From assembly GCA_963827525.1 (NCBI GenBank), contig CAWHBH010000001.1:1863-65862 (forward strand): DNA of 64,000 nt, written 5' to 3'. Shown here piece by piece: positions 8,906 to 58,433 of this stretch. Below the pieces are notes generated by a model. The model was given only the letters and a program-made list of their open reading frames with translations, ran no database searches and was not told the origin of the DNA. Source of the DNA: an uncultured Thermoleophilia bacterium (GTDB lineage Bacteria > Actinomycetota > Thermoleophilia > Gaiellales > Gaiellaceae). Position numbers and translations under genes: made by a program. The first letter of the stretch is position 1; the number at the start of each line of letters is the position of its first letter.

Positions 8906-9386
8906 GTGGCAAACCAGATGAAGACCAAAGAGAAGCCGACACTGAGCACCGACGCACTTCGTCCCTACGTTCAGCGGGCGATGACGGATCCGGACCTCCG
9001 AGATGACCTGCTCGCCGCATTCGTTGCCGCACGCGGCCTCTACGGGCAGCTGGGCAAGGGGCGCGGCGTGAAGGGCAAGGCGAACAAGGTCTCGGACAAG
9101 AAGTTCCAGAAGGAGCTCCAGGGACTCGTCGCCGAGCTCACGGACGCGTCGGATCGCCTTCAGGGCAAAGGGGCGAAGAAAGCCCACAAGGCGCGAAACC
9201 GCGTGCTTCTGCTCACCGGCGTGACGCTCGGCGTCCTCTACAACCCTTGGACGGGAGTCGTCGACGCGCGACTGGATCATGGATCGCGTCGCCGGAGGCG
9301 ACGGAGACGGGCTGGACGAGCTCGAGGCGGAGCTCGCGGCGAGTGCCGAGAGCACGACACCGGGCAACGGCAACGAGGCCGCCTAG
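8906..9386 (+). CDS. hypothetical protein (basic/coiled N-half, one TM-like segment, acidic tail); reading frame broken by +1 near 9250
   Basis: Strong GC3 in frame 2 from ATG 8906 to ~9255 (..GVLYNPWTG). GC3 then moves to frame 3 (..RDWIMDRVAGGDGDGLDELEAELAAS..NEAA, stop 9384-9386). The frame-2 continuation is R-rich and antisense to the M23 gene. Confidence 0.5.
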
Positions 9387-9487
9387 TTTGCGCAGAACCC
9401 GAGTTCGCTAGCCCCGATTCCGGTTCGCGCGTAAATCCGTGGAAGGCCCGCTTGGCGGGGTGCGCAGTGTTGATCAGTGCTCGCGGC

Positions 9488-10870
9488 CTAGCGGGTGAGC
9501 GCGCGTTCGAGCGCCCCCGGGACGAGTCCGCTGGTCGACCCGATGTCGTCGGCTTCGAGGAGGACCGCCCCTGGGGGTGGCAACGTCGCGAAGCCCGGTC
9601 CCGAAGGAACATAGATCCGTCCGGCTGCGAAGGAGACGTCGTCCGCTCGCCGCCAGGCGAGCAGGATCGGATACGGCGCGACCACTCCGTCGTATCCGAG
9701 ACCCGCCATTGCGGCCGGATGGATCTCGAAGTGGAGATGCGGAGTGCCGCCCTCGGCGTCGCCTGTATCCCCGACGAACCCGACGACGTCGCCCGCCTCG
9801 ACACGGCGCCCCTCCACGGCGAGCGGTGAGTACGCCGAGAGGTGCGCGTAGTAGAACTCGTTTCCGGAGGTGTCGCGCAACCAGAGCCGATAGCCGCCGA
9901 TCTTGTTGAAGCCGATTGTGTGCAGCGTCCCGTCGGCCACCGCCAGGAGCGGAGTGCCCGTTCGCGCGAAGATGTCCTCACCGTGGTGCCAACCGCCCGG
10001 AACGTTCGGCCGCGGCGCGCCGAAGCTGTCGCCGAACGAAGCGGTTCCGTACACCGGGAACACGTAGCCGCCACCCGTGAATCGCGCGGTGACCTCGGGC
10101 GCGACGAGCACAGGACCGCCGGGAACCTCACCGCCGACGTCGGGCTCGGGAGCTGCCGGGCGCGTCGGCCGAACAACAGGCGGGCGCGGGGTCGTCACCG
10201 GATCAGGGCGCGGCGTCGCCGACAGCTTGGCCACGGCGACGGCCTGCACGCTTCCGACGAGGATCTCGGTGCCAGCAGGAAGCCCACCGTGTGCGGCCGT
10301 CAACACGACACGAAGCGCGGCGGCCGACCCCTGCGCACCGGGTGGCCCTGACTTGCGGGCGCCACTGCTTTCGGTCAGCACGGCGATGGTCCCCCAGTCC
10401 TCGAGCGATGCGCGAGAGCCGGGAGTGGTCGAGACGTCGCTGCCGAGCACCCGGAGTCCCTGGACCCCGGATGCCGTGACGTCGGCGCCGACAGAGCGAG
10501 CGCTTGCTCCGGCGGACGCCGACGCCGTCACCTGCGCAGCGACCACCTCACCGCCGAAGAGCGACAGGACGATCACTTCCGCGAACGCCTGCGCAGCGGC
10601 CGCATCGCCAGACTGCGCGAAGACGGCGGCACGAGACCTACCGAGGCTCACGATCGAGCCGTCGTCCGGGTACTGGAACGACTGGACGTCCACCGTCGTG
10701 CTCGTCGGCCACTCGAGCGCACCCAACGAGACCGTGTCTTGTCCGGGAACGGTGATGCGAACGAGAACGGCCGTCGCACCTGTCGCCGCGCCCTTGGGTG
10801 GAGGCGCGGCCGCCGCCAAGGTCGTCGAGAGGACGAGGGCCGCGCCAACGAAGGCGGCAAGGCGGATCAC
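9488..10870 (-). CDS. secreted M23-family metallopeptidase (peptidoglycan endopeptidase)
   Basis: Signal peptide MIRLAAFVGAALVLSTTLAAA. C-terminal M23 motifs HHGEDIF and GDTGDAEGGTPHLHFEIH. GTGA overlap with the upstream TauE gene. Confidence 0.8.
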   Translation of the reverse strand: MIRLAAFVGAALVLSTTLAAAAPPPKGAATGATAVLVRITVPGQDTVSLGALEWPTSTTVDVQSFQYPDDGSIVSLGRSRAAVFAQSGDAAAAQAFAEVIVLSLFGGEVVAAQVTASASAGASARSVGADVTASGVQGLRVLGSDVSTTPGSRASLEDWGTIAVLTESSGARKSGPPGAQGSAAALRVVLTAAHGGLPAGTEILVGSVQAVAVAKLSATPRPDPVTTPRPPVVRPTRPAAPEPDVGGEVPGGPVLVAPEVTARFTGGGYVFPVYGTASFGDSFGAPRPNVPGGWHHGEDIFARTGTPLLAVADGTLHTIGFNKIGGYRLWLRDTSGNEFYYAHLSAYSPLAVEGRRVEAGDVVGFVGDTGDAEGGTPHLHFEIHPAAMAGLGYDGVVAPYPILLAWRRADDVSFAAGRIYVPSGPGFATLPPPGAVLLEADDIGSTSGLVPGALERALTR

Positions 10871-11618: not shown

Positions 11619-12243
11619 GTGTGGTCAGTCGTGTCGCGATCGTCTTGCTCGTCGATCGTTGCCGCGCTGGTCGGGGCCCGCGAGCGCGAGCAGTGGCCCG
11701 CGCAGCGTCGGTCGTCGCTACTACGTGGTACAGCCCGATCCGACGACTGTGTCCCTCGCCCTTATGTGGTGGCGACTGGGTCGCACTCGCGAACCACCCA
11801 CGTACGAGATGTCACGACGGAGCGCTTCGACCTCGGTGCTACGTGGCACGGACCGTCGACGAGGAGCGCCACCCGCAAGCCGTCGCGTGCCTGCGGGTGC
11901 GCTTGTTCGCGCTGAGGGACGAGCCGTGGAAGGACGCGTCCCGGCTTCGGCAGCTCGGCGACACTCGTCGTCGCGGACGTCTTGCTCGCCGGCCAGCGCG
12001 GCAGGGCCGCCGAAAGGACCCTTCTTCGATTGGCCGACACCGGTGTTCGCTGCATCCGCGCGCCTTGCTTCTCCATACGGCGTCACTGGCTCAACGGGTT
12101 GTCGCACACGAGCGTCTCAGGCATCGACCATCGAAGCGGCGTACGAGCAACGCCTGAGCGAGACTATGCGCGTGATCGATGGCGGGCGCCCTCGGTACGA
12201 AGAGCGGGCCGTAATCGCACAGGGAGCATCGCTCGGCCCGTGA
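11619..12243 (+). pseudogene. Cys-motif (CPSPLCGG ... GVRCIRAPC) protein gene spread over three reading frames; family assignment tentative
   Basis: Frame 2 reads ..WYSPIRRLCPSPLCGGDWV..TRCHDG..RCYVARTVDEE... Frame 3 reads ..LLRLADTGVRCIRAPCFS..LNG..VSGID. Frame 1 reads ..AAYEQRLSETMRVIDGG..., stop 12241-12243. Each frame turns R-rich after its plausible stretch. Confidence 0.3.
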
Positions 12244-12286
12244 CGGCAGGGCGTAAGTTCCTTGGCGACCCAGTTCTTCCTCAAGA

Positions 12287-13596
12287 TCAGCCCACTGACG
12301 CCTCGCGCCTGAGAACGTTCCAGGCCAGGCGAACGTCGTCTTCGGTGGTGCGAAAGTTGCCGACCGCCAGGCGCAACGCGTACCGGTCGCCGAGCCTCGC
12401 GTGCGAGAGGAAGACCTCGCCGGAGTCGTTGACCCGCTCGAGCAGCCGCTCGTTTTCCTCGTCCGTGCCCTGCCGGCGAAAGCACACGAGCGAGAAGTGC
12501 CGAGGAGCGACGACTTCCCAGCCCGGCTCGGCGCGTACCCACTGCTCGAACAGGGACGCGAGCCGTGACATGCTCGCGGATTCGCTCCTGCAGCCCGGCC
12601 TTGCCATAGCAGCGAAGCACCGCCCACAGCTTGAGCGCCCGAAACCGGCGGCCGAGCGGGATCGAGAGCTCGCTCAGGTTCACCGCGTCGTCGGGAGACT
12701 GGAGGAACTCGGGAACGAGGCTGAACGCTCGGCGGAATTCATCGAGACGACGTGTCCAGAGTGCGGAGCAGTCCATCGGGACGCCGAGCCACTTGTGCGG
12801 GTTGACGCCGATCGAGTCGGCGCGCTCCCAGCCGTCGAAGTGACGCGCGAAGCTCCGGGCAGACGGCAGCAGAGCCCGCGTACGCGGCGTCGACGTGCAG
12901 CCATGCGCCCGCGCCACGACATGCGTCCGCCAGCTCAGGAACCGGATCGACTGCGGCGGCTCCAGTCGTCCCGATCGTCGCGACGACCGCGCAAGCGTCG
13001 CCGAGCTCGAGGAGTTCGGCCCGGAGCCGAAACTCGTCGTCGACTGGGACCTTTCGCAGCTCGAGCTCGAGGAGCCGCGCCGCCTTGTCCACGACGGAGT
13101 GGGCGTGCTCGGAGCAGACGACCACCCGTCGATCTGGTCGCAGCGACCGCGCCACCGCGAGTGAGGCGAGAACACCGCTCGACGCCGTGTCCTCGATGTG
13201 GCCGTGAAACTCCTCCGGTAGCCCGACCAGCTGCCGGAGCCAGTCGAGTGTCACCTCTTCGAGCTCCTGCAACGCCGGAGAGGTGCGCCAGAGGATCCCG
13301 ACCTGGTTCAACCCTGCGATCAGGAGCTCCGCGAGGACTCCCGGCTCCGAGCCGGTCGTCGCGAAGTACGCGAAGAAGCGCGGGCTCTGCCAGTGCGTGA
13401 GCCCCGGCAGCAGGACGGTGTCGAGATCGCGCAGCACGGCCTCGAACGGCTCGGCATCGTCGGGTGGCGATGCGGGTAGAGCGGCACGAATTTGCCCCGG
13501 GTCGACCTGCGACAGGACCGGCAGCTCCCGGACGCGCTCGAGGTAGGACGCGACCCAGTCGAGCGCGAGCGCCCCGTCGTCGCGAAAGGCGCTCAC
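12287..13596 (-). pseudogene. PLP-dependent group II (aromatic-L-amino-acid/DDC-type) decarboxylase, two +1 frame disruptions (~12845 and ~12567)
   Basis: Three track ORFs (12739..13596, 12117..13175, 12287..12607) join into one DDC-like protein: ..HVDAAYAGSAAVCPELRA | HFDGWERADSIGVNPHKW (PLP Lys)..IREHV | RLASLFEQWVRAEPGWEV.. Confidence 0.75.
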
Positions 13597-15303
13597 CGCT
13601 TCAGCTTCTCGATCTCCCGCCAGGACCGCGTGTTCAGCACCTGTTCCTTCGTCAGCCAGGCGCGCCTGGCCTGGGCGACGCCGAGCTCCGCGTAGTCGAG
13701 CGCGCCGATCGAGTGGGCATCCGTCGTGATCGGAATCCGAACACCCGCTTCACCAGCCAATCGGGCGTGGGTGTCGCGCATGTCGAGCCGGTCCGCCTGC
13801 GAGTTGATCTCGAGCGCCGTGCCCGTCTCCGCGGCTCGCTCGACGACACGCTCGACGTCGACCTCTGCGCCGGTGCGCTTCAGCAGGCGCCTCCCCGTGA
13901 GATGGCCTATGCAGTCGACGTTGGGATTGTCGATCGCGCCCAGGATCCGCTCGGTCGGGCTGCGGTCGAACGACGTGTGAAGCGAGGCGACCACCCAGTC
14001 GAGCTGCGCCAGCACGTCGTCGGGAACGTCGAGCGACCCGTCCGCGCGGATGTTCGCCTCGATGCCGCGCAGCACGCGAAACGGCTTGACGACGACATTG
14101 ACGGCGTCGATCTCCTTCCACTGGGATTCGAGCCGGCCGTCGCGGAGGTAGTGCGAGTGGTCGGTCAGGCAGAGGAACCGGTAGCCCCGGAGCTTGGCCG
14201 CCTGCGCCATCTCCTCGATGGTGTTCTTTCCATCCGACGACCACGTCGAGTGACAGTGCATCTCGCCGCGGAGATCCGACAGCTCGACGAGCTCTGGTAG
14301 AGCCCCCTTGCGGCCGGCCACGATCTCGTCCGTCCCCTCGCGCAGCTCCGGGGCGATCCAGGCGTAGCCGAGGTACTCGTACAGCTCTGCCTCGGAGGCG
14401 TGGGTCACGACCTCGCCCGTCTCGACGATCGTCACCCCGTACTCGGAGATCGAGAGCCCCCGTCGCTGTGCGTCTTCACGCAACGCGATGTTGTGGTCCT
14501 TCGATCCCGTGAAGTGCTGGAGCACGTTCCCGTAGCACTCGGGTGGCACGACCCGCAGGTCGAAGCGGAGACCATCGTGCCCGACGACCGTTGCCTTCGT
14601 ATCGCCGCGCGCGGCTACCTCGGCAACCCACTTCCCGCCGCAGAAAGTAGTGATGAGCGCGGGCGCGTCGCTCGACGTCGCAATGAGATCCAGGTCGCGC
14701 ACCGTCTCGCGCCGACGCCGCACGCTGCCTGCTTCCGAGACGGCGATCGCGGCCGGATGAGCCGTGAGCTCCGCGGCTACCCGGCGAACTGCAGGCAATG
14801 CCGTGCCGAGAAGCCGGCGTGGCTCGACCTCCTCGCCGACGCCCGCCTCGAGCGCCTTCAGAATCTTCTCCTCGCTGCGAGCACCCATCCCCGAGAGCTC
14901 GCGTAGGCGACCGTCTTCCGCAGCCGCCTTGAGGCTCGCGAGCGTCGTCACACCCAGCTGGGTCCAGATCCGGGCGGCCGTCTTCGGCCCGACTCCCGGC
15001 AGCCGTAGGAAGTCGACGACCCCGGCGGGGACGCGCTGCCGTCTCCTCGTGAGAGCCTCCATCTCGCCCGCCCTCCACGACCTCGACGACCTTCTGCTCG
15101 ATCGTCCTGCCGATTCCGGGAAGCTCTTTCGCCTTTCCCTCGAGCGCAAGCTCGGCGATAGGAACCGCGGACTCCCGGATCCGAGTTGCCGCGCGCCGGT
15201 ATGCGATCACCTTGAACGACTCCTCTTCGAGGATCTCCGAGAGATCGGCAAGGAGGTCGAGCTGGTCGGCGAGCTCGGCGTTTCGGGGCAGGGCCTTGGC
15301 CAT
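13593..15303 (-). CDS. polX: PolX-family DNA polymerase with C-terminal PHP phosphoesterase domain; one +1 frame disruption near 15066
   Basis: N-terminus (ORF 14476..15303) ..ELPGIGRTIEQKVVEVVEGG joins ORF 13593..15149 at EMEALTRR..LRLPGVGPKTAARIW (HhH). PHP motif HCHSTWSSDG. GTGA overlap with the decarboxylase gene. Confidence 0.8.
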
Positions 15304-15320
15304 GCCGCGATGATACGGCG

Positions 15321-16043
15321 ATGCCTCGTGCCGTTCTGTGCCTCCCGACCTACAACGAGCGGGAGAACCTCGAGCCGATGATCCGTGAGCTCGGAGACGT
15401 CCTGGACACCTCGAAGGACCGCGTTCTCGTCATCGACGACGCGTCTCCTGACGGAACCGGCGAGATCGCAGACCGGCTCGGCGCCGAACTGTCATGGGTG
15501 TCCGTCCTCCATCGCGAGCGCAAGGAGGGGATCGGGCCGGCGTACATCGCCGGCTTTGAGTGGGCGCTCGCGGAGGGTGCGGAGCTCGTCCTCGAGATGG
15601 ACTGCGACTTCTCGCATCGCCCGAGCGACGTGCCGCGGCTGATCGCGGCCGCCGAGGATGCCGACCTCGTGCTCGGCTCACGCTACGCGCCCGGAGGAGG
15701 AACCGAGAACTGGGGGCTCGTGCGGCGGATCGTGTCCCGCGGCGGCTGCCTCTACGCGCAGGTCCTGCTCGGGATGCGGGTGCGCGACCTGACCGGCGGG
15801 TTCAAATGCTTCCGGCGAGGCGCGCTCGAAGCCATCGACCTCGACGCGTTGTCGGCGCACGGGTACGCGTTTCAGATCGAGACGACGTACCGGGTTCGTC
15901 GCGCAGGGCTCCGCGTGCAGGAGATCCCGATCACGTTCGTCGAGCGGCGCGCAGGTGCGTCGAAGATGACGGGCTCGATCGTCGCGGAGGCGATCTGGAA
16001 AGTGCCGCTTCTGCGCCTTCGGGCGTTGACCGGTCGTCTGTAG
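15321..16043 (+). CDS. polyprenol-phosphate mannosyltransferase (GT2, Ppm1/DPM1-like)
   Basis: LPTYNERENL, VIDDASPDGT, EMDCDFSH and GSRY motifs typical of GT2 dolichol/polyprenol-P-mannose synthases. Confidence 0.8.
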   Translation: MPRAVLCLPTYNERENLEPMIRELGDVLDTSKDRVLVIDDASPDGTGEIADRLGAELSWVSVLHRERKEGIGPAYIAGFEWALAEGAELVLEMDCDFSHRPSDVPRLIAAAEDADLVLGSRYAPGGGTENWGLVRRIVSRGGCLYAQVLLGMRVRDLTGGFKCFRRGALEAIDLDALSAHGYAFQIETTYRVRRAGLRVQEIPITFVERRAGASKMTGSIVAEAIWKVPLLRLRALTGRL

Positions 16044-22432: not shown

Positions 22433-23251
22433 CTACGTCAGCAGGTCGAGAAATGCCGCGATGTCGGCTGCGACCCGCTCGGGTTGCTCCCAATGCACCA
22501 CATGGCCGACGCCCTCATAAACGACTAGCCGGGAGTTGGAGATCGCGGCCGTGAGTTTCTCCTGATCCTCGCGGGGCGCGAAGACGTCGCGATCGCCCCA
22601 CACGATCAGCGTCGGAGCAGCGATCGTTCCGGTCGCAGCCGCTGGCACGGCCTCGAGCAGGCCTTCTAGCGATTCCTTCCAGACGCGCGCGGGCACTTTG
22701 AGGCTCTCGCCGACCAGCTTCTCGAGGAAAGCGGGAGACACCGGCCCGGACACGGTGCTCGCAACGAACTCGCGCACGAAAGTGGGGTCGACCGGGTCGC
22801 TGAGCGCAAACACGTCCCTGGCCAGATCCGAGTCCGCCGCGTCACCGAGGCTCCAGGGCACTCCGATCAGCACGAGACCCAGCGTTCTATGCGGATTGTC
22901 TAGCGCGAAGCGCTGCGCAGTAAAGCTTGCACTCGAAGAGGCAACCAGCACAGCGCGCTCGAGTCCGAGAACGTCCAGAAAAGCGACGAGATCGGCGGCG
23001 AAGTCGGTGACCGCGTAGCCCGATGTTGGTTTGTCGGCTTCCCCGTGTCCACGCTGCGTCACCGCGATGGCACGAATCGACCTCGGAAGATGCGGAAGCA
23101 CGAGCTCGAAGGACCGCCATGAGTCCGCGTAACCGTGGAGAAGGACTACGGGTAGACCGGCGGCCTCGTCGCCCTGTTCTACATATGGCAACTCGAGCGC
23201 GTTCGGCAGCGTGGCCCACTTGATCTCGGTAGGAGTCCACGCGCTCGCCAT
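22433..23251 (-). CDS. alpha/beta-fold hydrolase
   Basis: VVLLHGYADS oxyanion region, nucleophile elbow ASSSASF (Ser context), C-terminal GVGHVVHWE. Confidence 0.7.
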   Translation of the reverse strand: MASAWTPTEIKWATLPNALELPYVEQGDEAAGLPVVLLHGYADSWRSFELVLPHLPRSIRAIAVTQRGHGEADKPTSGYAVTDFAADLVAFLDVLGLERAVLVASSSASFTAQRFALDNPHRTLGLVLIGVPWSLGDAADSDLARDVFALSDPVDPTFVREFVASTVSGPVSPAFLEKLVGESLKVPARVWKESLEGLLEAVPAAATGTIAAPTLIVWGDRDVFAPREDQEKLTAAISNSRLVVYEGVGHVVHWEQPERVAADIAAFLDLLT

Positions 23252-23254: not shown

Positions 23255-25558
23255 CTAGCGAAGAGCATGGAGGGCCTTCGCCAGCGACTGCTTACCGCCG
23301 AGGACTCCCGCGTAGAGATCCCCGTCACGCGCGACGCGATCGAGCACGGCGTCCATCGTGAAGGCCGAAGGATCGAGCCCGGAGACGACCTCCTCCCACC
23401 GGAGCGGCGTCGAGACGGGCGCTCCCGCACGCGGCCGCACGGAGTAGACGGACGCGTTGGTCTTCCCCGGTCCGTTCTGATTCGCGTCCACGAGGACACC
23501 TCGACGCTTCTGCTTCGCCCACTCCGTGGTCACGAGCCCCGGATGCGCACGGGCGAGAGCGCCGGCGACGATGCCGGCGAACTCCCGGACGTCCGCGAAC
23601 GTGTGGCGCCGCTGGATGGGCACGAGCACGTGGATGCCTCTCGAGCCCGAGGTCTTGGGAAAGCTCTCGAGCTCGAGCAGGTCGAGCGTCTCGCGAACGA
23701 GCCTCGCTACCTCGATCACCTCCTCGAACCCGGCTCCCTCGGAAGGGTCGAGGTCGAACATCACCCAGTCAGGCCGTTCCGGGCGGTCGGCGCGTGACGC
23801 CCAGGTGTGCAGGTCGATGCAGCCCATGTTCGCCATCCAGAGCAGCGCGAGCCCGTCATTCACGAGGGCGTAGTCGATGACCTTCTTCTCACCCTCGCGC
23901 GTGGAAGCCGGGAAGGGTGCTCGCGGAATCCACTCGGGCATGTGGGAGGGTGACTGCTTCTGGAAGAAGTTCTTGCCCTGCCAGCCGTCCGGGTAGCGCT
24001 TCATCGTGAACGGCCGGCCACGCAGGTGCGGGACGAGCACGTCTGCGACGTCGCGGTAGTAGGCGATCAGGTCGCCCTTCGTGATCCCTTCCTCCGGCCA
24101 GAACGGCTTGTCGAGGTTCGAGAGGCGGAGCTCACGCCGACCGCGCGTGACAACCGTGGGAACCGGGGCGCGCTCACGCCGAACGTCCGAGGCCGGCCTC
24201 GTCCTCGCGCAATCGCACATAGACCGGTGCGCGCAGCCGGCCTTCGCGCGTCCACTCTGCGAACTCGACCTCGGCGACCAGTCGCGGCTCGACCCAAACG
24301 ACGTCCGAACGGCGAATGCGTGGCATCCTCGGCACCTCCTTCAGCGGCGACTCCTTGCGCTCGAGTGGCCTCAGGAGCCCGAGCAGACGCTCGATCTCCC
24401 CGTCGCTGAAACCGGTTCCGACGTTCCCGGCCCAGCGGAGCCCTCCCGCTTCGTGGACGGCCACGACGAGCGCGCCGAAAGCGCCCGAACGGCGTCCTTG
24501 GCCACGGGTGTACCCGACGACGACGACCTCCTGGGTCTGACGCAGCTTCACCTTGTGCCAGTCGACGCTCCGTTGCCCGGGCCGGTACCGAGAATCCACG
24601 CGTTTGGCGACGACCCCCTCGAGCTCCTGCTCGCGGGCTGCGACGAGAAGCGCCTCCCCGTCCTCGAACTGCGGCGACACGAAGACCTGCCCGCCCGGCT
24701 TGACAAGAGCTTCGAGTCGCCTGCGCCGCTCGCTGAGTGGCTCGTCGAGGAGCGGCTCCGAATCGACCTCGAGCAGGTCGAAGAGCACGAGCGCAAGGTT
24801 CCCGGTTCCTTCCTGAAGCAGCGAGAAGCGTGATCGCCCGCGCTCGTCGAGTGCACAGATCTCACCGTCCAGAACCGCATCTGCCGAGCGAATACCCAGC
24901 TTCGCGGCTCGCGCAACGTCAATGAACCGCTCGGTGAGGTCGTTTCCGTTTCGGCTCGTGAGCGTCACGTCGCCGCCCGCGACGGTGACGATCGCGCGGA
25001 AGCCGTCCCACTTCGGTTCATAGACCCATGCTTCGCCCGCCGGGAGAGTCGCCGAGGTCGTCGGCGAGCATCGGCGAGTACCCGAGGCTCTTCTCGCCAC
25101 CGCCATCCTTCCTCAGGAGCAGCCAGTTCTTCGGATCGCCGTCGAGGTGCGCCGAGACCAGCGTCCAGACACCGTCGAGGCGATTTCCACGAAGGCGGAC
25201 GGTCAAACCGCCGTCGCGTCTTCTCCTCGACGAGCTCATAGGTGCCGCGATCCCAGATCTCGACGGTCCCGGCGCCGTACTGGCCGGCGGGGATCGTCCC
25301 TTCGAACTCCGCGTACTCGAGAGGATGATCCTCGACGTGCACGGCGAGATGGCGCTCTCCGCGACGGAGCGGGACCCCTTTTGGCACGGCCCAGCTCGCC
25401 AGGGCCCCGTGGCGCTCGAGTCGAAAGTCGTAGTGGAGGCTCCTCGCGGCATGTCGCTGGATGACGAACCGCGGCTGATCGCCAACCGCCTGCGGTTTCC
25501 CGAACGGCTCAGGCGTCTTGCCCGGCTTCCGGCGGCGGCGGTACTCGTTCAGGCTCAC
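23255..25558 (-). pseudogene. ligD: multidomain NHEJ ligase LigD (phosphoesterase - ATP-dependent ligase - primase/polymerase) broken by three +1 disruptions (~25210, ~25050, ~24195)
   Basis: PE domain FVIQRHAARSLHYDFRLE.. continues in another frame as DGGLTVRLRGNRLDGVWTLV. PMLADDLGD | LPAGEAWVYEPKWDGFR (ligase KxDG). ..VYVRLREDE | PASDV..GRRELRLSNLDKPFWP (polymerase domain). Confidence 0.8.
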
Positions 25559-25672
25559 CTGTGGATTGTCGCCTGAATCGCAACGCTTTCTTTACCAAGC
25601 GGCTGCATATCGCGACTTTTCCCTGCTCAGGAACGTTTCGCCGCAGGGGATAAGCCTGTGGAACCTGTGGAA
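25558..25672. promoter_or_regulatory. three CCTGTGGA(A/T) DnaA-box-like motifs upstream of and overlapping the ligD start
   Basis: CCTGTGGAT at 25558-25566 (overlaps GTG 25558-25556). Perfect tandem CCTGTGGAA at 25655-25663 and 25664-25672. The same 9-mer type occurs in the dnaA/rpmH spacer. Confidence 0.35.
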
Positions 25673-30063: not shown

Positions 30064-30086
30064 GCCGCAAGCCTAGATGCTCGGTA

Positions 30087-30570
30087 ATGCGCACGATGCG
30101 CATTCGAGAGCTGAGAGCGGAGGACTGGCCCGCTGTCGAAGCGATCTACGCGGAAGGGATCGCGACGCGGAACGCGACCTTCGAGACCGAGACGCCGACC
30201 TGGGCCGAGTTCGACGCCGGCAGGCTGCGTGACCATCGGCTCGTCGCGATCGACGGCGATCGCATCGTCGGCTGGGCTGCGTTCTCCCCTACCTCGAGTC
30301 GAGCCTGCTACGCCGGAGTCGTCGAGCACTCCGTGTACGTCGCCTCGGAGTACCGTGGACGAGGCATCGGTAGGACGCTGCTCGAGGCGCTCGTCCACAG
30401 CGCCGACATCGGGCGGGATCTGGACGATCCAGACGAGCGTGTTCCCCGAGAACGAGGCGAGCCTCGCGCTCCACGAACGCGTCGGGTTCCGGGTAGTCGG
30501 ACGCCGTGAGCGCATCGCGCAGCTCGATGACGTCTGGCGCGACACGATCCTGCTCGAGCGCCGCGTCTGA
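30087..30570 (+). CDS. GNAT acetyltransferase (phosphinothricin/MSO N-acetyltransferase-like); one +1 frame disruption near 30414
   Basis: ORF 30087..30509 reads ..YVASEYRGRGIGRTLLEALVHSADIG then turns R/P-rich. ORF 30229..30570 carries the expected continuation GIWTIQTSVFPENEASLALHERVGFRVVG. Confidence 0.7.
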
Positions 30571-34986: not shown

Positions 34987-37097
34987 CTATGGCGCAACGC
35001 GAACGACGGGGCTGCTCGAGTTCCCGGCCGCATCCCAGGCGACGACGCGGACGCTCGCGGCAGCGCCGTTCCACGGTATTCGAACGACCCCGGCCCGCTT
35101 CACCTCACGACGAAGCGCCCGGCCGTCGATACGGAGGGTGAGCACTGAGGGCTCGCTCACCTCGATGCGCAACTTCTCGCCCGGGAGGATGCGCACGCGC
35201 GGAGGCACGGTGTCGGAGCTGAACGAGACGCCATACGAGATGGACGACACTCCGTCCTCGGCCTCGACGATCGCCTCGTAGGCTCCGTCTCGGAGAGGAC
35301 CTGCGGCTCGGACACCGTCCCACACGAAGCGTTGGTTGCCGGGAAGAAAACTTGCCGTGAGCGGGCTGGCAACCCAGCGGCCGTCACGCTCGATCCTGAT
35401 CCGGACATCTGCAGGCGCCGTAAGCGCGAAGGTCATCGCGAGCACGTCCTTCCTACCGTCTCCGTTCGGAGAGAACGCTACGGGGCTCGCCGTCACCACC
35501 CCGAGCGTCCTGCTCACGTTGAGCGGAACGATGCTCTGTACCTCCGCGCCTGAAGCGGTGCGAGCGGTGATCACGACTCCGTAGCGGCCATCGGGTAGAA
35601 CGGCGCCGTCGATCGTCAACGTGTGCTGTCCCGCCCGCGTCCAGACGCGGTCGACGGGCGTGGAGATCACGCCTCCGATCGAGTCGACGACCTCGACGGT
35701 GACATTCGCCGACGCGTTCAAGCGGTACGTGAGAAGCGTTGTGTCGGCCTGCTCGTCCCCGTTCGGGCTGATTGCCTCGGGATCGGCCGAGGCGGCCTCG
35801 ATCGCAAGTGGCGGAGTGGCACCTCCGGCGCGCAGGGCGCCGGTTGCCGAGCGAGCGCCCGCGGTGCCGATCGACCACGTGAAGCTTCCCGCGGCAACAC
35901 CGGCGGAGTCCCAGGTCCAGTCGACGTCCGGTCCGGTACCGGCGCCGCGCGCCACTTCGACGCGCGCAGTGTTCGTGACTGAAACTGTCCACGGCTCGCG
36001 GCGATGAAAGCCTGGCACGAAAACGGATCGCGGTACCGCTGAGGGTCGACGCGCGGCTCGAAGATCTTGGGTAGCCCCACCGACCTTGCCGACGCAGCGA
36101 GCGATCCGAGCCTGCCGTACAGCGCAGCTCCTGGGCACTCCGTGAACCCGGTGTCGCGATGGCCTGACACAGCGTTCAGGACAACCGGGATCCCGCTCGC
36201 ATAGCGCTCGCTCCCGCCGGAGATGTACGTCAGGAAGCTCGTCGGGTCGACGTGCGCAAGGTCGAGGCGCCAGGCTAGAAGGCGGGCGATCGCATCTTGT
36301 GCGGCCTTCGACGGTTGGGCGTCTCCATACGTGCCGAGCAGCGCCACACCCACCGAGCCCGTGTTGAACCCTCGCGCGTGGGCTCCGACCACGTTGCGGT
36401 CGGTCCCGCCGAACCGGCCCTCGTACACGGTTCCGAATCGGTCGACGAGAAAGTTGTAGCCGATGTCGTTCCAGCCGTTTCCCTGCACGTGGAACAGCTG
36501 GATGCCCTTGACGATCGCTGCTGCCTCGGCCCGCGAGTAGTCGTTGCTTCCGGCGGTGTGGTGCACGATCGCGAACCGAACTTCGGCCGCGTAGGTCGGA
36601 GGTCCGCGGCGAATCGACTCATCCGCTCCCCACGAAAGTCGCGGAACGACGGGAGGCGCGTCGGTGCTGGCCGGAAGTCGGTACGGCACCCGCGACTCGG
36701 GGCTCCAAACGAGATGCGCGCGAATTCGCGACACGCGGCCGATTGCCCTAGCCTCGATCGCGACCGCCGGTCCAACCCACCAGGGATTCCCTTTCCTCCA
36801 AGCGACAGCCAGGCTCTCGCGGGACCCGGAGTCCGGTCCATCTTCGTCCTCCGGCGCCCCGGGCCGCCACTTGCTCCATCGCCCCGTCGTCGCACGGGTG
36901 CGAAAGACGACGCGGCCCGGACCACGCCACTGCACGCCGGCAAGCGTGAACGGCGCAGTCGAGCTCGGTGCAAAGGTGTGCGACTCAGTCGCGTGTAGCT
37001 CGACCGTCGTCACCTGCCCGTTCGTCACTGCGAGCGCGTCGGGGGCTAGGCTCGGTGCGACGAGAAGAGCGGCAATGAGGAAGAGGCGGCGGCGCAT
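34987..37097 (-). CDS. secreted N-acetylmuramoyl-L-alanine amidase (PGRP/Amidase_2) with C-terminal FlgD-Ig-like repeats; -1 frame disruption near 36010-36040
   Basis: ATG 37097 with signal peptide MRRRLFLIAALLVAPSLA. IVHHTAGS..GWNDIGYNFLVDRFG..GAHARGFN..GHRD..CPG. The C-terminal half is in ORF 34987..36138 (ISPNGDEQAD.., FSPNGDGRKD..). Confidence 0.7.
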
Positions 37098-37170
37098 ACG
37101 AGCCAGGGTGGCCTTCCAGCTGTTCGCCCACAAGGGTGGGAAACCCTCCGTTGATAGAATCCTTACACCG

Positions 37171-39261: not shown

Positions 39262-44708
<5,447 letters not shown>

Positions 44709-44709
<1 letters not shown>

Positions 44710-46885: not shown

Positions 46886-47044
46886 TACTGAAGAAAAGAA
46901 CTCGTAGAAGTAGTAGGAGTGTGCAGCACGTGGAAGACAGGACGATTGTGCCGCAGAAGCGGGGAAAACAACTGTGCGAGCACCTGGGGATGGAAGCACA
47001 CTGTTTCCACAGCCCGCCCGCGTTGAGTGCGCTGGACCCCCACT

Positions 47045-48499: not shown

Positions 48500-48513
48500 G
48501 GCCGATCATGTCT

Positions 48514-48672
48514 CCTGTGGATGAAAAACCGGCATATTTGCAGGGTTTTTATGTCATCCACACACCTTTCCACAGGTGTGGACGATCACCGCACCGTTAG
48601 CGGGTGAGACAACGAAGCGACGCGCGGAGCAGCGATTTCGAGATTCACCTGCTTCTCCACGACTGTGGAAAA
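48514..48672. promoter_or_regulatory. DnaA-box cluster with AT-rich stretch; candidate oriC / dnaA autoregulatory region
   Basis: Five TGTGGA/TCCACA cores in 156 bp: CCTGTGGAT 48514-48522, TCATCCACA 48554-48562, TTTCCACAGG 48567-48576, TGTGGACGA 48577-48585, TGTGGAAAA 48664-48672. AT-rich stretch at 48521-48556. Confidence 0.55.
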
Positions 48673-48743
48673 CTTCGGCTCGAGCACGTCGTCTATACTG
48701 CCCGCTCCCCCGGCTCCAACACCCTCTCGAGAGCGAAGACGAC

Positions 48744-48878
48744 GTGAAACGAACCTACCAACCGAACGTCCGTCGCCGAAAGCGGCGACACGGGTTTCGA
48801 GCGCGAATGGCCTCGCGCGGAGGCCGCGCGATCCTCAAGCGGCGTCGCGCGAGAGGGCGCAAGCGCCTCTCGGCCTGA
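48744..48878 (+). CDS. rpmH: 50S ribosomal protein L34
   Basis: GTG 48744 gives [44 protein letters not shown] (44 aa). Confidence 0.9.
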
Positions 48879-48889
48879 GGCGCCCGCCC

Positions 48890-49240
48890 GTGCAGCGCCG
48901 CAACCGGCTCTCCCGTTCACGGGATTTCGACACCGTCTACAGACGCGGTCAGTCCGTTTCGACGCGGTATCTCGTTCTCCATTGGTTCCCGCGCGACGAG
49001 GACTTGGATGGCGTGCCGCGGGTCGGTCTCGCAGTGCCACGGTCCGTCGGCTCTGCGGTGGTCCGCAACCGTGTGAAGCGGCTTCTGAGGGAGGCCTGGC
49101 GTGAACTGCTTCCCACTGTGCCCAGTGGGCACGACTACGTACTTGCCGCACGCGCGGGTATCGCCGAGCCCGCAGAGGCGCGCGGGCTCGAATGGCTTGC
49201 CGCTGAGATAGACGACGTTCTCGGGAAGGTCCGGACGTGA
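48890..49240 (+). CDS. rnpA: ribonuclease P protein component
   Basis: GTG 48890. RLSRSRDFDTVYRRG..VGLAVPRSVGSAVVRNRVKRLLREA (RNR motif). Follows rpmH. Confidence 0.85.
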   Translation: MQRRNRLSRSRDFDTVYRRGQSVSTRYLVLHWFPRDEDLDGVPRVGLAVPRSVGSAVVRNRVKRLLREAWRELLPTVPSGHDYVLAARAGIAEPAEARGLEWLAAEIDDVLGKVRT

Positions 49241-49494
49241 GATACGTGGGGATCTGGGCCGTGCAAGCTTGGCGCTGGACCTTCGGGCTCCTCACACCGC
49301 CCGGGACGTGCAAGTACCACCCGAGCTGCTCGCAGTACGCCATCGACGCGCTTCGTGAGCTCGGCCTCGTCCGCGGCAGCGTTCTCGCCACCTGGCGCTT
49401 GCTTCGCTGCAATCCCTGGAGCCATGGCGGGGTCGACTACGCCAGAGATCAGTCGGTGTTCCCGCTGTTTCGCTCCGGAAAGGCGCGGACGTGA
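49237..49494 (+). CDS. yidD: membrane protein insertion efficiency factor YidD
   Basis: CKYHPSCSQYA..RLLRCNPWSHGGVDY. GTGA overlap with rnpA. Confidence 0.85.
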   Translation: MRYVGIWAVQAWRWTFGLLTPPGTCKYHPSCSQYAIDALRELGLVRGSVLATWRLLRCNPWSHGGVDYARDQSVFPLFRSGKART

Positions 49495-50315
49495 TCGTCG
49501 GTGGAGTTCTCTCCCCGCTCGAGAACGTCCTCACCGAGGTCCTCATCTGGCTTCACGAAACGGGCGGACTGACCTGGGCCTGGTCGATCGTCGCGCTCAC
49601 CGTGATCGTGCGCATGCTTCTCGTTCCGGTCGCGATTCGCCAGATCCACTCGATGCAGAGCCTGCAGATCCACGCGCCCGAGATGAAGGCGATCCAGCAG
49701 CGCTACAAGGCGGACCGGCAGAAGCAGTCGGAAGAGCTGATGAAGTTCTACAAGGAGAACAAGATCAACCCGTACGCCTCCTGCCTGCCGATCGTCTTCC
49801 AGATCCCGATCTTCATCGCGCTCTTCTTCGTTCTTCGCGACTTCGAGGACGAGATCTTCCCGAACTTCCCGGCCTCAACGCTCGAATGGATCAGCCTCGT
49901 CGACATCACCCAACCGACCAAGGACGGCTGGGGGCCCGTGCTGATCGCGGTTTACGTCGTGAGCCAGCTCACCTCGACGTGGCTGATGTCTACGTCAATG
50001 CAGAGCAAGGCTCAGCGCTACATGATCATGTTTCTCCCCATCGTCTTTCTCCCGTTCATCCTCGGCTTCCCCTCGGGGCTCATGATCTACTGGCTGACGA
50101 CGAACCTCTGGACGACAGGCCAGGGCCTCGTCACGCGGCGCCTGATGCCGAAGCCGACCCCGCCGCCCAAACGCTCGAGTCGAACACCACCCAAGGACGC
50201 GGGAGAGTCTCCAGCGACGACGGCCTCGGTCGAGCCACAAGGTGACGGAGGACCGCAACGCACCGGGCCGCCGCGCCGCGTGAAGCGCAAGCGTGGTGGG
50301 AGAGCACGGAGATGA
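49491..50315 (+). CDS. yidC: membrane protein insertase YidC (short form)
   Basis: ..VIVRMLLVPVAIRQ..MKAIQQRYK..MKFYKENKINPYASCLP.., basic C-terminal tail. GTGA overlap with yidD. Confidence 0.85.
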   Translation: MIVGGVLSPLENVLTEVLIWLHETGGLTWAWSIVALTVIVRMLLVPVAIRQIHSMQSLQIHAPEMKAIQQRYKADRQKQSEELMKFYKENKINPYASCLPIVFQIPIFIALFFVLRDFEDEIFPNFPASTLEWISLVDITQPTKDGWGPVLIAVYVVSQLTSTWLMSTSMQSKAQRYMIMFLPIVFLPFILGFPSGLMIYWLTTNLWTTGQGLVTRRLMPKPTPPPKRSSRTPPKDAGESPATTASVEPQGDGGPQRTGPPRRVKRKRGGRARR

Positions 50316-50996
50316 GCGGTGCGGACGCAATCACGGTCGAGGCGACCGGCGAGACGGTCGGCGAAGCAAAATGGGCGGCACTCCGCGAGCTCGAGCAGCT
50401 CGTGCCAGGCCTCGACCGCGAGAGCGTGGAGTTCCAGGTGGTCTCGGAGGGAGAGCGTGGCCTTCTGGGCGTGGGATTCACGCCCGCGCAGGTGATCGCA
50501 AGCGCTTCCGCGCAGGAACAGGCGGCAACTGGCCGAATCCAGCGAAGAGGCCGAGACCGCACGCGAGTTCGTTCAGCGCGTCGCCGCCGCTATCGGAGCG
50601 AGCGTCAAGGCGTCCGTCTCCGAGCGCGACGACTCGGTGACGGTCACGGTAACCGGCACCGATCTGGGCCTCTTCATCGGCAAGCACGGCCAGACGATCG
50701 ATGCAATCCAGTATCTGGCGAACGCGATCGCGAGAACCGAGGGCGGCGGCCACGCGGTCGTCGTCGACGCGGCGGGCTATCGCGCGCGTCGAACCGCGAC
50801 GCTCGAGACGGTTGCGCGGCGCACCGCGCAGCGTGCATCAGCCACGGGCCGACGAGTCGAGCTCGACCCCATGACACCCGTCGAACGAAAGATCGTCCAC
50901 GAGGCTCTGAAGGACGATCCGGAGGTCGAGACCATGAGCGAGGGCTCGGAGCCGAACCGGTACGTCGTCGTCCTTCCGCGGCACGCCGCGGACTGA
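50312..50996 (+). CDS. jag: Jag/R3H-KH RNA-binding protein; +1 frame disruption near 50528
   Basis: N-domain ITVEATGETVGEAKWAALRELE (frame of 50312). KH/R3H part GTDLGLFIGKHGQTIDAIQYL..MTPVERKIVHEAL..SEGSEPNRYVVV is in the frame of ORF 50637..50996. Confidence 0.75.
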
Positions 50997-50997: not shown

Positions 50998-51588
50998 ATG
51001 GCGAACGCGTTCCTCGAGCGCTGGCTCGGGGAGGTCCTCACTGCTCCCGGCGCGACCGGGATCGACGGTCTCGGCGACGCACGCCGCATGCTTCTCGACG
51101 ACGCGCTGCGCGCAGCCCCGATCGTCGAGAGCTCGCCCGGGCCGGTGATCGACGTGGGGTCGGGAGGCGGCACACCAGGTATCCCCCTCGCGGTAGCGCT
51201 CCCCGGGCGGAGCTTCACGCTGCTCGAGGCGGAGCGCCGGAAGTGCGACTTCCTGAGCAGGATCTCCGCCGAGCTTCCGAACGTCGAAGTCGTCTGGGGC
51301 CGCGCCGAAGAGCAGCAGACCGACGTTTTCGGCGTCGCCCTTGCGAAGGCCCTCGCGAAGCCTCCGGTCGCGGCAGAGCTCTGCCTGCCGCTCGTGAAGC
51401 CGGGAGGGATCGCAATCCTCTGGGTCGGCGAGAACCCAGAGCTGGATCGGGTCGGGCAAGTGGCCGAGAAGCTCGGCTCGCGCCTCGAGGACGAGGCCGA
51501 CGGATTGCTCGTGCTGAGGAAGACGGAATCCACGCCAGCCGGCTTTCCCCGCCGGCCGGGTATGGCGAAGAAGCGGCCGCTCGCCTAG
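50998..51588 (+). CDS. rsmG: 16S rRNA (guanine527-N7)-methyltransferase
   Basis: VIDVGSGGGTPGIPLA SAM motif, LLEAERRKCDFL, position between jag and parA. Confidence 0.85.
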   Translation: MANAFLERWLGEVLTAPGATGIDGLGDARRMLLDDALRAAPIVESSPGPVIDVGSGGGTPGIPLAVALPGRSFTLLEAERRKCDFLSRISAELPNVEVVWGRAEEQQTDVFGVALAKALAKPPVAAELCLPLVKPGGIAILWVGENPELDRVGQVAEKLGSRLEDEADGLLVLRKTESTPAGFPRRPGMAKKRPLA

Positions 51589-51864
51589 CGATCCGGTCGT
51601 GGCTGCGCGTTGTGCAGCCGGATGCCGCTGAACTCGAGCGTTGACCCGACGAGCGATCCCAGTGCGGCCAGAGATCGCGAGGGAACCGTAACTCGATTCC
51701 GGCAGGTGACGGAGTCGTCGAGCCGCCTCACGCCGAGGCGAGCTCGCGTTGCTCGAGGCCGTGGCACTGACGTGCGGGTCGAACCGTTCGACCGCCGCGT
51801 CGTCGCTGACATGCCAGAGCGCATACGGGCCTTCGCCGACGTAGGGTGGCGCCGGATCGCGCAC
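51585..51864 (-). pseudogene. remnant of a conserved-hypothetical gene (N-terminal LWHVSDDAAVERFDP and C-terminal STLEFSGIRLHNA pieces only)
   Basis: The two short family-like pieces lie in different frames (+1 apart) only ~90 codons apart. I recall the family as ~170-200 aa (possibly DUF6886; from memory, unverified). Confidence 0.3.
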
Positions 51865-51903
51865 ACGGCCGACTCTAGCCGCACCCCTCACTAGTCTTGT
51901 CGC

Positions 51904-55122: not shown

Positions 55123-57228
55123 ATGAGCCCGCCTCGAAGTAGGCGAACTCCCCTCGACCCTGACTCGCTACGCCCGAGGGGTCGCCATCAGCGCGCCGCC
55201 CGGCGTCGGCGGAGACGCCGTGGCGCGATCGTCGCTATCGGGGCGATCCTGACGCTCGGACTCGCGGCCGGCGTGGCGGGCACGGCGGGGGTTCTTGCGT
55301 ATGGCTCGTCATGCGACCTGGACTCCCTTCGGAGCATCCGCATCGGGCAGAACACGTTCTTGTACGCGGCCGACGGCTCCCTGCTCGGCTCGATCCCGGC
55401 AGAGCGCAACCGCCAGCCCGTGAAGGCGGAAGGAATGTCGCTGTGGATCCGCAAGGCCACTATCGCCGTCGAGGACCGCCGATTCTTTGCCCACGGGGGT
55501 GTCGACATCGAGGGGATCGCGCGTGCCGCCGTGGCGGACATCCGAGCCGGCGAGATCGTGGAGGGTGGGTCGACGATCACGCAGCAGCTCGTCCGCAACC
55601 TCTACATCTCACGTGAGCGAACCGTGCAACGGAAGGTGAAGGAGGCCTGTCTCGCCACCAAGCTCGACGGGGCGTGGACGAAGCATCGGATCCTCACCAC
55701 GTACTTGAACCAGGTGTACTACGGGAATCACGCGTACGGCATCGAGGCTGCGGCACAGACGTACTACTCGAAGCCGGCGAAGGAGTTGAACCTTGCGCAA
55801 TCCGCCCTTCTCGCCGGGCTGACACAGGCGCCTTCTCTCTACGACCCCTTCACGACTCCCGCTCGCGCGCTCGCTCGGAGAGCGGTCGTCCTTCGTGCAA
55901 TGCTCGAAACGGCGGTCATCTCGAAGCGCGAGCACGATCTGGGTCTCGCATCCAAGCTCGCTCTTCGCCGAGGCCGCCTCTACAGCCGCATTCGCGAGCC
56001 CTACTTCTTCGGCTACGTGCGGGACAAGCTCATCGAGGCATACGGGCCTGAGATCGTTCGCTCGGGGGGGTTGCAGGTCTACACGACGATCGTTCCGCGC
56101 TACCAGCGGTTGGCCGAGAAGGCCATCCGCGACACGATGAACCAGCCGACCGACCCCGCCGCCGCACTGATCTCGATCAGCCCCCGCACCGGAGCGATCC
56201 GTGCGATGACCGCGGTGATCCCGAATCGACCGAAGAACGAGTTCAACCTTCTGTCGCAGGCGCGGCGGCAGACGGGCTCGACCTTCAAGACGTTCGTGCT
56301 CACGGCTGCGGTGGAGATGGGGATCAATCCCGATTCGACGTACTACGTATCGGCGCCGTTCACCTACCGAGTCCACCCTGCGGGGAACTGCGAGGACGGG
56401 ACGTGGTGGTGCGTGCACACGTACGCCAACGACTACTACGGCTGGAGCTCCATCAGAAGCGCGACGATTCGATCCGACAACGCGGTCTACGCGCAGCTAA
56501 CCCTGGACGTCACCCCGAAGAAGGTCGCGGAGACCGCGCGTCGCATGGGAGTTCGCTCTCAGCTGGACGTCGGGGGTGCATACGTGCCGGCGATCGGACT
56601 CGGCTCCATCGCCGTCTCGCCACTCGACATCGCATCTGGATACGCGACTCTTGCCGCCGGCGGTGTGTACGCGGAGCCGATGGCGATCCGGCGGGTCGTT
56701 CTCGCCAGCGGTCGCGAGGACACGACTGCGGGCTGGGGCGTTCCAAAGCGAAGGCGGGCGATCTCGGAGGGAACTGCGGCGGTCGTCACACGCATCCTCG
56801 AGCAGAACGTCCAATCTGGAACGGGAACACGGGCCGCGTTCGGGCGACCGGCGGCCGGGAAGACCGGAACGAACGAGGAGCACGCGGATGCGTGGTTCGC
56901 GGGGTACACGCCGGATCTCGCTACGACGGTCTGGCTGGGCTACACAAAAGGTGAGATTCCGATGGAAAACGTGCACGGGATCGCCGTCAGCGGGGGCAGC
57001 TTCCCGGCGGAGATCTGGCGGCTGTTCATGGAGCCGGCGCTCGAAGGAACCGAGGCGGCGCCGTTTCCCGAGCCGGCGTTCTGGCCGGAGTGGAAGCCGT
57101 TCACGCGGGGGCAGTACGCACTGAGCTACGACCCGAGCTACGTCGCGCCCGAGAGCACTGAGACGGAGACGACGCCGGCCGCGCAGGCGCCACCCCCAGC
57201 ACCACCGACCGGGTTCGGCCGACCGTAG
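55123..57228 (+). CDS. class A penicillin-binding protein (glycosyltransferase GT51 + transpeptidase)
   Basis: GT51 motifs EDRRFFAHGGVD, GGSTITQQL, RKVKE. Transpeptidase motifs STFK, SDN, KTGT. N-terminal TM anchor. Confidence 0.85.
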   Translation: MSPPRSRRTPLDPDSLRPRGRHQRAARRRRRRRGAIVAIGAILTLGLAAGVAGTAGVLAYGSSCDLDSLRSIRIGQNTFLYAADGSLLGSIPAERNRQPVKAEGMSLWIRKATIAVEDRRFFAHGGVDIEGIARAAVADIRAGEIVEGGSTITQQLVRNLYISRERTVQRKVKEACLATKLDGAWTKHRILTTYLNQVYYGNHAYGIEAAAQTYYSKPAKELNLAQSALLAGLTQAPSLYDPFTTPARALARRAVVLRAMLETAVISKREHDLGLASKLALRRGRLYSRIREPYFFGYVRDKLIEAYGPEIVRSGGLQVYTTIVPRYQRLAEKAIRDTMNQPTDPAAALISISPRTGAIRAMTAVIPNRPKNEFNLLSQARRQTGSTFKTFVLTAAVEMGINPDSTYYVSAPFTYRVHPAGNCEDGTWWCVHTYANDYYGWSSIRSATIRSDNAVYAQLTLDVTPKKVAETARRMGVRSQLDVGGAYVPAIGLGSIAVSPLDIASGYATLAAGGVYAEPMAIRRVVLASGREDTTAGWGVPKRRRAISEGTAAVVTRILEQNVQSGTGTRAAFGRPAAGKTGTNEEHADAWFAGYTPDLATTVWLGYTKGEIPMENVHGIAVSGGSFPAEIWRLFMEPALEGTEAAPFPEPAFWPEWKPFTRGQYALSYDPSYVAPESTETETTPAAQAPPPAPPTGFGRP

Positions 57229-57235
57229 CCGCGTC

Positions 57236-58433
57236 TTGGTGACGGAGCTCTTGACGATCGAGGACGCGCTAGCTCGCGTCCTCGACCGTGCGGAGCTCCT
57301 TCCGGTGGAGACGATCGCGGTTGCGGACGCAGCTGGCCGTGTTCTCCGCGAGCCAGCGACGTCGCAGGTCGATCTTCCGCCGTTCGCGAGCTCCGCGATG
57401 GACGGATTCGCGGTGCGGGCGGACGAGGTTCCTGCGGAGCTGCCGGTCGCCTTTCGGGTTGCGGCGGGCACGCCCGCGCAGGCCGCACTTCTCGTGGGAA
57501 CTGCGGCTGCGATCGCGACCGGTGGCGCCGTTCCGGCAGGGGCGGACGCAATCGTTCCCGTCGAGCACCTGGTTGACCATGGCGATCGCGTGGAGATACC
57601 GAAGGAAGCACGACCCGGGCAGCACATACGCCCACGCGGCGGCGATGTTCGGGAAGGCGACATCGTGGCTGCACCGGGCACGCTGCTCGGCCCGGCGCAG
57701 ATCGGCGCGCTCGCTGCGGTTGGAATCGCAGAGGTCCGTTGCTCCGTGCGCCCGCGCGTGGCCGTGCTCGCGACGGGAAGTGAGCTGCGGGCTGCCGGTG
57801 ACGCTCTAGCTCCGGGACAGATCTACGAGTCGAATCGGCCCATGATCGCGGCTGTGCTGCGCGCTGCGGGCGCCGAAGTCGAGCTGCTTCCCGTGGTCGA
57901 AGACGACGAGGACGCCCACCGGGCGGCTCTCGAGCGCGGTCTCGAGGCGGATGTGCTGGTGACCTCCGGCGGTGTTTCGATGGGTCCCCATGACCTCGTT
58001 CGCAAGGTCGTTGCCGAGCTGGGTGTCGAGGAGGTGTTCTGGGGCGTCTCCGTCAAGCCGGGGAAGCCGCTCTCCTTCGGAGTCCGGGGAGCAACGCTCG
58101 TCTTTGGTCTGCCGGGAAACCCTGTGTCGTCTCTGGTGGGCTCGCTGCTCTTCGTCAGACCCGCTCTTCTGGCTCGTCAGGGCGTCATGCCCCTCGATCT
58201 GGGTTTCGAGCACGGTCGAGACCGCGGCGGTGCTCCGACAGAACCCCCACCGAGACGAGTTCGTGCGGGCGCGCCGCCGCTCGGAGGAGGACGGTGTCTT
58301 CGTCGAACCGGTCTCTGGCCAGGAGTCGCACATGATCGTTCGAGCCGCTGCCGCCGACGCTCTGATCCACGTTCCTCGGGGCGAGGGCGAGATTGCCGCC
58401 GGTACCGCGGTTCGGTACCTCAAGCTCGTCTAG
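57236..58433 (+). CDS. moeA: molybdopterin molybdenumtransferase MoeA; +1 frame disruption near 58210
   Basis: ..SSAMDGFAV.., TGSEL, VTSGGVSMG, GLPGNPVSS in the frame of 57236. C-terminal domain ..VETAAVLRQNPHRDEFVRA..VSGQESHMI..GTAVRYLKLV is in the frame of ORF 57972..58433. Confidence 0.8.

Follow-up and report, generated by a model that had tools for sequence, protein, structure and literature searches.

Surplus single bases that break conserved genes in a Gaiellaceae metagenome-assembled genome are very probably errors of the assembly consensus

Frame breaks in the genes of the window

The 64,000-nucleotide (nt) stretch of DNA analysed here, called the window throughout, is G000:C1:1863-65862, where G000 is the source genome, a metagenome-assembled genome (MAG) of an uncultured bacterium of the Gaiellaceae (3.06 Mb in 46 contigs, 67% G+C, rated 89% complete and 7.65% contaminated), which the names of homologous proteins assign to Gaiellaceae-like Thermoleophilia from soil. 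The window carries conserved genes, among them those for a PLP-dependent decarboxylase, the DNA polymerase PolX, LigD, Jag and MoeA, in which the encoded protein is begun in one reading frame and continued in a neighbouring one. A first-pass annotation, made from the letters of the DNA, had counted about 15 such disruptions, 14 of them +1, and had ascribed them to a likely systematic artefact, namely single-base over-calls, several of them repairable in short runs, rather than to gene decay.

Five genomes of the same genus (G002, G004, G005, G006, and G011; 70-81% nucleotide identity) were colinear with the whole window, and their syntenic regions, 65-73 kb each, were used for comparison. A frame map was drawn with a codon-usage hidden Markov model (HMM) trained on long open reading frames (ORFs) of G000 itself, and the results of tblastn with the relatives' ORFs against the window were searched for single queries running on in an adjacent frame. 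For frameshift-aware protein-to-DNA alignment we used 314 ORFs of the relatives, chosen by the codon HMM, and listed all events; MAFFT provided local alignments at the break sites and a tiled alignment of the entire window.

The frameshift-aware alignment yielded 12 events, all of them +1 (one surplus base in the window) and each backed by four or five of the five syntenic congeners, at positions 9257, 12566, 12846, 15069, 24200, 25062, 25219, 30405, ~36000, ~36040, 50513-34, and 58220. They broke a small unnamed gene and the genes for the PLP decarboxylase, PolX, LigD (three times), a GNAT acetyltransferase, an amidase, Jag, and MoeA. In local MAFFT alignments the single-base gap was present in all relatives at the break sites, and in the tiled MAFFT alignment with the five congeners the conserved context contained 10 private insertions of 1 nt and not one private deletion of that size. 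Frameshift-aware alignment with the same five genomes produced no well-supported -1 event in the window; with equal odds for the two signs, twelve +1 and no -1 events would have a probability of 2^-12. The sign bias towards +1 is genuine. Pfam domains ran on across the breaks in the decarboxylase, PolX, LigD, the acetyltransferase, Jag, and MoeA, and neither Rfam nor tRNA scans returned anything that would account for the break sites. In all, some 13 to 20 conserved genes or parts of genes are disrupted in the window by one surplus base each.

These 12 events lay at 11 of the 15 coordinates given in the first-pass annotation. At the remaining four, the +1 placed at 51760 was backed by neither DNA nor protein alignment, the stretch being a truncated gene remnant; the break at 39310, in the tail of gyrA, is only probable; and those at 11960 and 12135 had been misplaced, the gene there being broken as claimed, at other and more numerous places, with 12134 only possible. 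The single -1 event reported near 36020 was resolved by protein-to-DNA alignment and MAFFT into two +1 events about 45 nt apart (Table 1). We also considered, as a sixteenth site, a frame change at about 16045 seen against five relatives, and rejected it, since a true gene boundary lies there, with an intergenic insert of 34 nt.

Table 1. Genes of the window in which the reading frame is, or was thought to be, disrupted
Feature	Position	Strand	Frame breaks and support	Domains and remarks
Small conserved gene	8903..9380	+	Extra T at 9258; +1 at 9257 against 5/5 congeners	No Pfam family match
Small Cys-rich secreted-type gene	11621..12290	+	At least five frame disruptions clustered within 650 nt	
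PLP-dependent decarboxylase	12290..13746	-	Two extra bases, 12567 and 12845; +1 at 12566 and 12846 against five congeners	PF00282 split: profile positions 1-239 in 12874-13596, 244-343 in 12564-12869
PolX (family X DNA polymerase with PHP domain)	13599..15327	-	Extra base at 15066-15069; +1 against five congeners	HHH_8 in 15070-15327; HHH_5, thumb, and PHP in 13599-15068
LigD (phosphoesterase, ligase, primase-polymerase domains)	23258..25591	-	Three breaks: 25219/20, 25063, 24195; three +1 events against 4-5 congeners	Pfam LigD_N, ligase, and Prim-Pol spread over four frames
GNAT acetyltransferase	30069..30564	+	Extra base at 30405-30411; +1 against five congeners	Domain continues past the break
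Amidase_2 / FlgD_ig-CHU_C gene	34993..37162	-	Two +1 events, ~35992-36004 and 36035-36044, against 4-5 congeners	Both single-base gaps visible in MAFFT
gyrA	39262..41809	-	Extra base near 39307-39318 probably shifts the acidic C-terminal tail	
jag/khpB (Jag_N, KH, R3H)	50291..50990	+	Extra base at 50513-50534; +1 against five congeners	Jag_N in 50291-50539; KH and R3H in 50544-50990
Truncated remnant of a ~190-aa gene	51586..51900	-		Full gene in G005 and G011 only
moeA	57191..58430	+	Extra base at 58220/1; +1 against congeners	MoeA_N and MoCF in 57191-58210; MoeA_C profile positions 8-72 in 58221-58430

Near-identical sequences and the rest of the assembly

Sequences closer to the window than the five congeners were the JGI contig L029 (96.1% identical over 4.3 kb) and the contigs L111 (ERZ25039504, conspecific), L112, and L113 (91-98%). 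The contigs placed on the window came from other soil and rhizosphere samples and from other strains only, the best share of window 31-mers in any listed sequencing run being 0.29. When L111, L112, and L113 were compared with the window, four surplus bases, the T at 9258 and the G at each of 12845, 15066, and 24195, were found in the window only, and L113, the only one of the three to reach that far, was also without the 25063 G and the 25219 T. L029 was without exactly the three bases 24195, 25063, and 25220, and its LigD is a single 777-codon ORF; base 25063 was missing, in addition, from contigs of three other sequencing runs. PolX is intact in five other assemblies, at 569 aa and 96-99% identity, L111, L112, and L113 being contigs of three of them; the window's product has 489 aa. 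Comparison with orthologous loci in close relatives, which the first-pass annotation had recommended, thus showed the extra bases to be missing there, with the exception of the one at 12567, which is weighed below. An 8.4-kb short-read contig, L114 (91.5% identical), contained only compensated indels and stops short of the gyrA tail, jag, and moeA, and is a weak control; a search with dnaA found no conspecific long contig.

The defect was not confined to the window. A heuristic that counts same-strand frame switches with the upstream frame staying open for more than 60 nt found 491 in G000, of which 385 were +1 and 106 were -1. The resulting genome-wide density, which the first-pass annotation had proposed to compute, was 1.6 per 10 kb, against ~0.34 per 10 kb for the same heuristic in the syntenic regions of the cleaner congeners G004, G006, and G011, and it was fairly even over the contigs (0-4 per 10 kb). 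Within the window the heuristic detected about 58% of the verified loci, and the true number is therefore roughly 600-700; as a rough estimate, G000 would hold 600-700 false frameshifts, affecting about one gene in five, and probably several hundred. Indispensable genes were included: among four long essential genes tested, rpoC and ileS were intact, and rpoB and secA were broken, rpoB at C8:37027 by a +1 shift within the FMDQTN...LTHRRRLSALG (rifampicin-pocket) region and secA, on contig C16 near 71800, by a +1 shift within the GAVTIATNMAGRG helicase motif.

Other assemblies of the genus had breaks of their own. rpoB is a single ORF in G004, G005, G006, and G011, and its copy in G002 has at least five frame switches, at positions other than that in G000. 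Private 1-nt insertions and deletions numbered 18 and 1 in G005 (in 65 kb), 4 and 0 in G002, and 17 and 4 in L111, and G006 had none. Insertion-only sets that differ from assembly to assembly are characteristic of a pipeline and not of a lineage. Sister assemblies have contigs of 0.4-0.9 Mb with Flye-style names, which, going by naming conventions, we take to mark long-read assembly; from these contig sizes and names, and from nothing else, G000 was very probably built from long reads as well.

We concluded from these results that the frame disruptions are very likely consensus errors of the MAG and not features of the organism, and that in the living cells the genes are almost certainly intact at these sites. 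The results supported neither gene decay nor programmed frameshifting as the cause. The part of the earlier claim that named a systematic artefact in place of decay was thus borne out, as the bases are private to the assembly, near-identical strains are intact, selection on LigD is not relaxed (see below), rpoB and secA are broken in invariant motifs, and sister assemblies show insertion-only sets at other places.

Origin of the extra bases

Long-read MAGs are known to retain frameshifts (PMC9262707; proovframe preprint). The breaks described here resemble the indel errors of Nanopore and PacBio assemblies, the subject of IDEEL-type tests and proovframe masking, in that many conserved genes are interrupted by indels of 1 nt, at a density that varies with the assembly, truncated proteins occur beside full-length orthologues, and the affected genomes still pass MAG quality tiers (PMC9262707; proovframe preprint). 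In contrast to that literature, which emphasises homopolymer indels of both signs, we found almost only insertions, two thirds of them outside homopolymers. The neighbouring base was repeated, extending a run, in only 11 of 35 private insertions, and over-calling of homopolymers was rejected as the general cause; with it went the earlier proposal of over-calls in short runs. The repair suggested for 15066, GGGC to GGC, likewise did not hold, for conspecific contigs showed the G inserted between C and C.

A different regularity was apparent. In 26 of the 35 private insertions (74%) the extra base was one that other genomes have as an allele in the adjacent column; inserting the same bases at random in comparable positions, without realignment, would give 30% (p = 1e-7). 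Genus-level variation served in this test as a proxy for polymorphism within the sample. At 15066, for example, the window has G then C and the relatives have either G or C; at 25063 the window has C then G; and at 12567 the window has GTCA and L112 has GTA. This suggests collapsed strain single-nucleotide polymorphisms (SNPs) rather than homopolymer over-calls. At roughly one place per 4-5 kb the G000 consensus carries one base too many. We propose that this most likely arises where co-assembled strains differ by a SNP: a consensus or polishing step would have written both alleles in succession, and a substitution polymorphism would thereby have become a one-base insertion. Such stacking of SNPs would explain the near-exclusive +1 sign, the mostly non-homopolymer sites, and the pile-up of events in strain-variable stretches.

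There is a precedent in the collapsed PacBio assembly of Trypanosoma brucei Lister 427, in which nearby allelic variants gave rise to indel errors and apparent frameshifts (PMC8445201). The two cases are alike in that allelic variants would mislead the alignment and the consensus gains frameshift-like indels. They differ in that the trypanosome variants were two haplotypes of a diploid eukaryote, whereas here they would belong to co-occurring soil strains, for which we infer the link to SNPs within the sample.

The densest cluster of events lay in the small Cys-rich gene at 11621-12290, whose counterpart in L111 and L113 is a DUF6748 gene. Relative to G002 and G005 there were +1 events at 11654, 11679, and 11743, further events between 11879 and 11930, and possibly others at 12134 and 12221-12261. 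The stretch is poorly conserved and was rated non-coding by the codon HMM; base 11654 was missing from a rhizosphere contig of run X1, the depth from other samples was low, and one contig, 99% alike, diverges past 11668. The gene may be a strain-hypervariable locus with a blended consensus.

It is also possible, if somewhat unlikely, that the extra bases are insertion errors left over at random, at low coverage, by a long-read chemistry prone to them, and independent of strain polymorphism, in which case they would still be artefacts. Raw PacBio continuous long reads are reported to have ~8% insertions and 3% deletions (proovframe preprint), the density of switches over the contigs is fairly even, as random errors would have it, and 9 of the 35 insertions had no matching neighbouring allele. 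Against random errors stand the excess of insertions that did match such an allele, the clustering of at least five events within 650 nt of the most strain-variable gene, and the recurrence of one insertion at an identical site in two assemblies, which is unlikely for random errors. Insertions alone, mostly outside homopolymers and with a surplus base that matches the alternative allele next to it, form a signature that points to the collapse of strains when the consensus was built; should this be correct, strain-aware polishing ought to help more than added coverage.

Some points weigh against consensus error in general or against strain collapse in particular. The sequences used for comparison belong to other strains or species throughout, with no read from the source sample among them, and a very recent burst of genuine insertions in this lineage alone is thus conceivable. 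The extra G at 12567 was common to the window and L111, two conspecific assemblies, and missing from L112, L113, and the five congeners; it reflects either a consensus error that recurred at an A/C polymorphism common to both, as stacking there would explain, or a real shared mutation. The test of neighbouring alleles, for its part, drew on genus-level variation and on a null model without realignment.

Taken at face value, the breaks would be real frameshifts in a lineage undergoing recent mass pseudogenisation by single-base insertions. The shared base at 12567 and the choice of references allow for this, and the window does hold one true gene remnant (51586-51900); we nevertheless regard it as very improbable, given breaks inside invariant motifs of rpoB and secA, intact genes in conspecific strains, and different private sets in other assemblies of the genus. 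Pseudogenes would be expected to show a deletion bias, several sizes of indel, and premature stops, and the window instead showed only single-base +1 changes (10 private 1-nt insertions and no deletions), with no larger indels. No fragment of the broken genes held a stop, in agreement with what the first-pass annotation had said of the displaced segments. Nor was selection relaxed in LigD, the only gene tested in this way: when the gene was read through and compared with L029, the ratio of nonsynonymous to synonymous substitution rates (dN/dS) was 0.11 for the whole gene and 0.08-0.14 for every one of its four fragments, those downstream of the breaks included, instead of the value near 1 of a pseudogene. 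LigD has therefore been under purifying selection for essentially all of its divergence from L029.

Decoding of the genes in spite of the breaks, by genome-wide programmed +1 ribosomal frameshifting or transcriptional slippage, was considered as well. The +1 frameshift site of prfB, the gene for release factor 2 (RF2), is conserved and combines a slippery codon with an in-frame stop and, upstream, a Shine-Dalgarno-like element. The breaks described here resemble prfB-type frameshifting in having one extra base in the DNA and a protein that continues in the +1 frame, and share none of these features of the prfB site. The well-supported sites were absent from the five congeners and from the conspecific sequences tested (except 12567 in L111) and are private to one assembly, and the contexts of the sites differed, with no slippery or stalling motif common to them, the exact base being uncertain by a few nt at some; the first-pass annotation had judged programmed frameshifting unlikely on the lack of such a motif, and we agree. 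The next 0-frame stop lay 10-604 nt downstream of the break sites, and the sites themselves therefore have neither a stop nor a hungry codon. Recoding would fit the almost uniform +1 direction and the downstream frames, which are open and conserved; it is nevertheless hardly credible for sites that mostly lie outside slippery runs and for an rpoB gene broken at different places in G002 and G000 and unbroken in four other genomes. Were the extra bases truly in the DNA and read through by a +1 recoding that is efficient and needs no motif, or by transcript editing, rpoB, secA, gyrA, ligD, and hundreds of other genes would stay functional, a prospect to which we give next to no credence.

Consensus errors of this kind are of small biological interest, and their practical importance lies in data quality. 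G000 is the representative of its species, and pseudogene calls, protein lengths, marker-gene estimates of completeness and contamination (89 and 7.65), and pangenome or metabolic inference are all affected. The congeners G005 and G002 and the sister assembly L111 have the same defect.

The gyrA tail, a gene remnant, and neighbouring features

The break assigned by the first-pass annotation to the gyrA tail is probable from the composition and length of the tail; such tails are variable, and the exact extra base could not be located by homology. In the unshifted frame the tail becomes rich in Arg and the ORF extends over 110 nt of the convergent gene; in the +1 frame the tail is acidic and stops at 39262, 1 nt from the stop codon of the convergent gene. 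About 30 GyrA homologues have acidic tails and a total length of 834-860 aa, some with EDEPPA-like endings. Two database GyrA proteins, P0003 and P0005, have Arg-rich tails and look frameshifted, and occur beside near-identical proteins with acidic tails.

The stretch 51586-51900, which had been read as a +1 break, is probably a genuine gene remnant. About 45 N-terminal residues of the ~190-aa protein align; the match then fades, with an uncertain -1 near 51687, and the remainder is missing. The gene is absent altogether from G002, G004, and G006.

LigD is adjoined by a probable Ku gene (22433-23251), which is one open frame in the window. Relative to L029 this region has a compensated pair of changes, an extra G at 22573 and a missing G at 22630, and also a stretch of 287 nt (22654-22940) without a counterpart in L029; relative to the congeners it has private indels of 11, 22, 2, and 16 nt.

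An intergenic repeat of ~160 nt, present at 8479-8638 and 26687-26870, forms a long hairpin with imperfect pairing (-92 to -109 kcal/mol for the better of the two strands). About 30 copies occur in G000 at 78-97% identity, and copies in G002 are 92-96% identical, above the conservation of the flanking genes. The repeat had no Rfam match, and the depth in other soil runs peaks there; it looks like a miniature inverted-repeat transposable element (MITE) or an element of the repetitive extragenic palindromic (REP) type.

The minus strand of 39262-49400 has the classical order of an origin region, rnpA, dnaA (47052-48428), dnaN, recF, a DciA-family gene, gyrB, and gyrA, and the cumulative GC skew has its minimum near 40-44 kb of the window.

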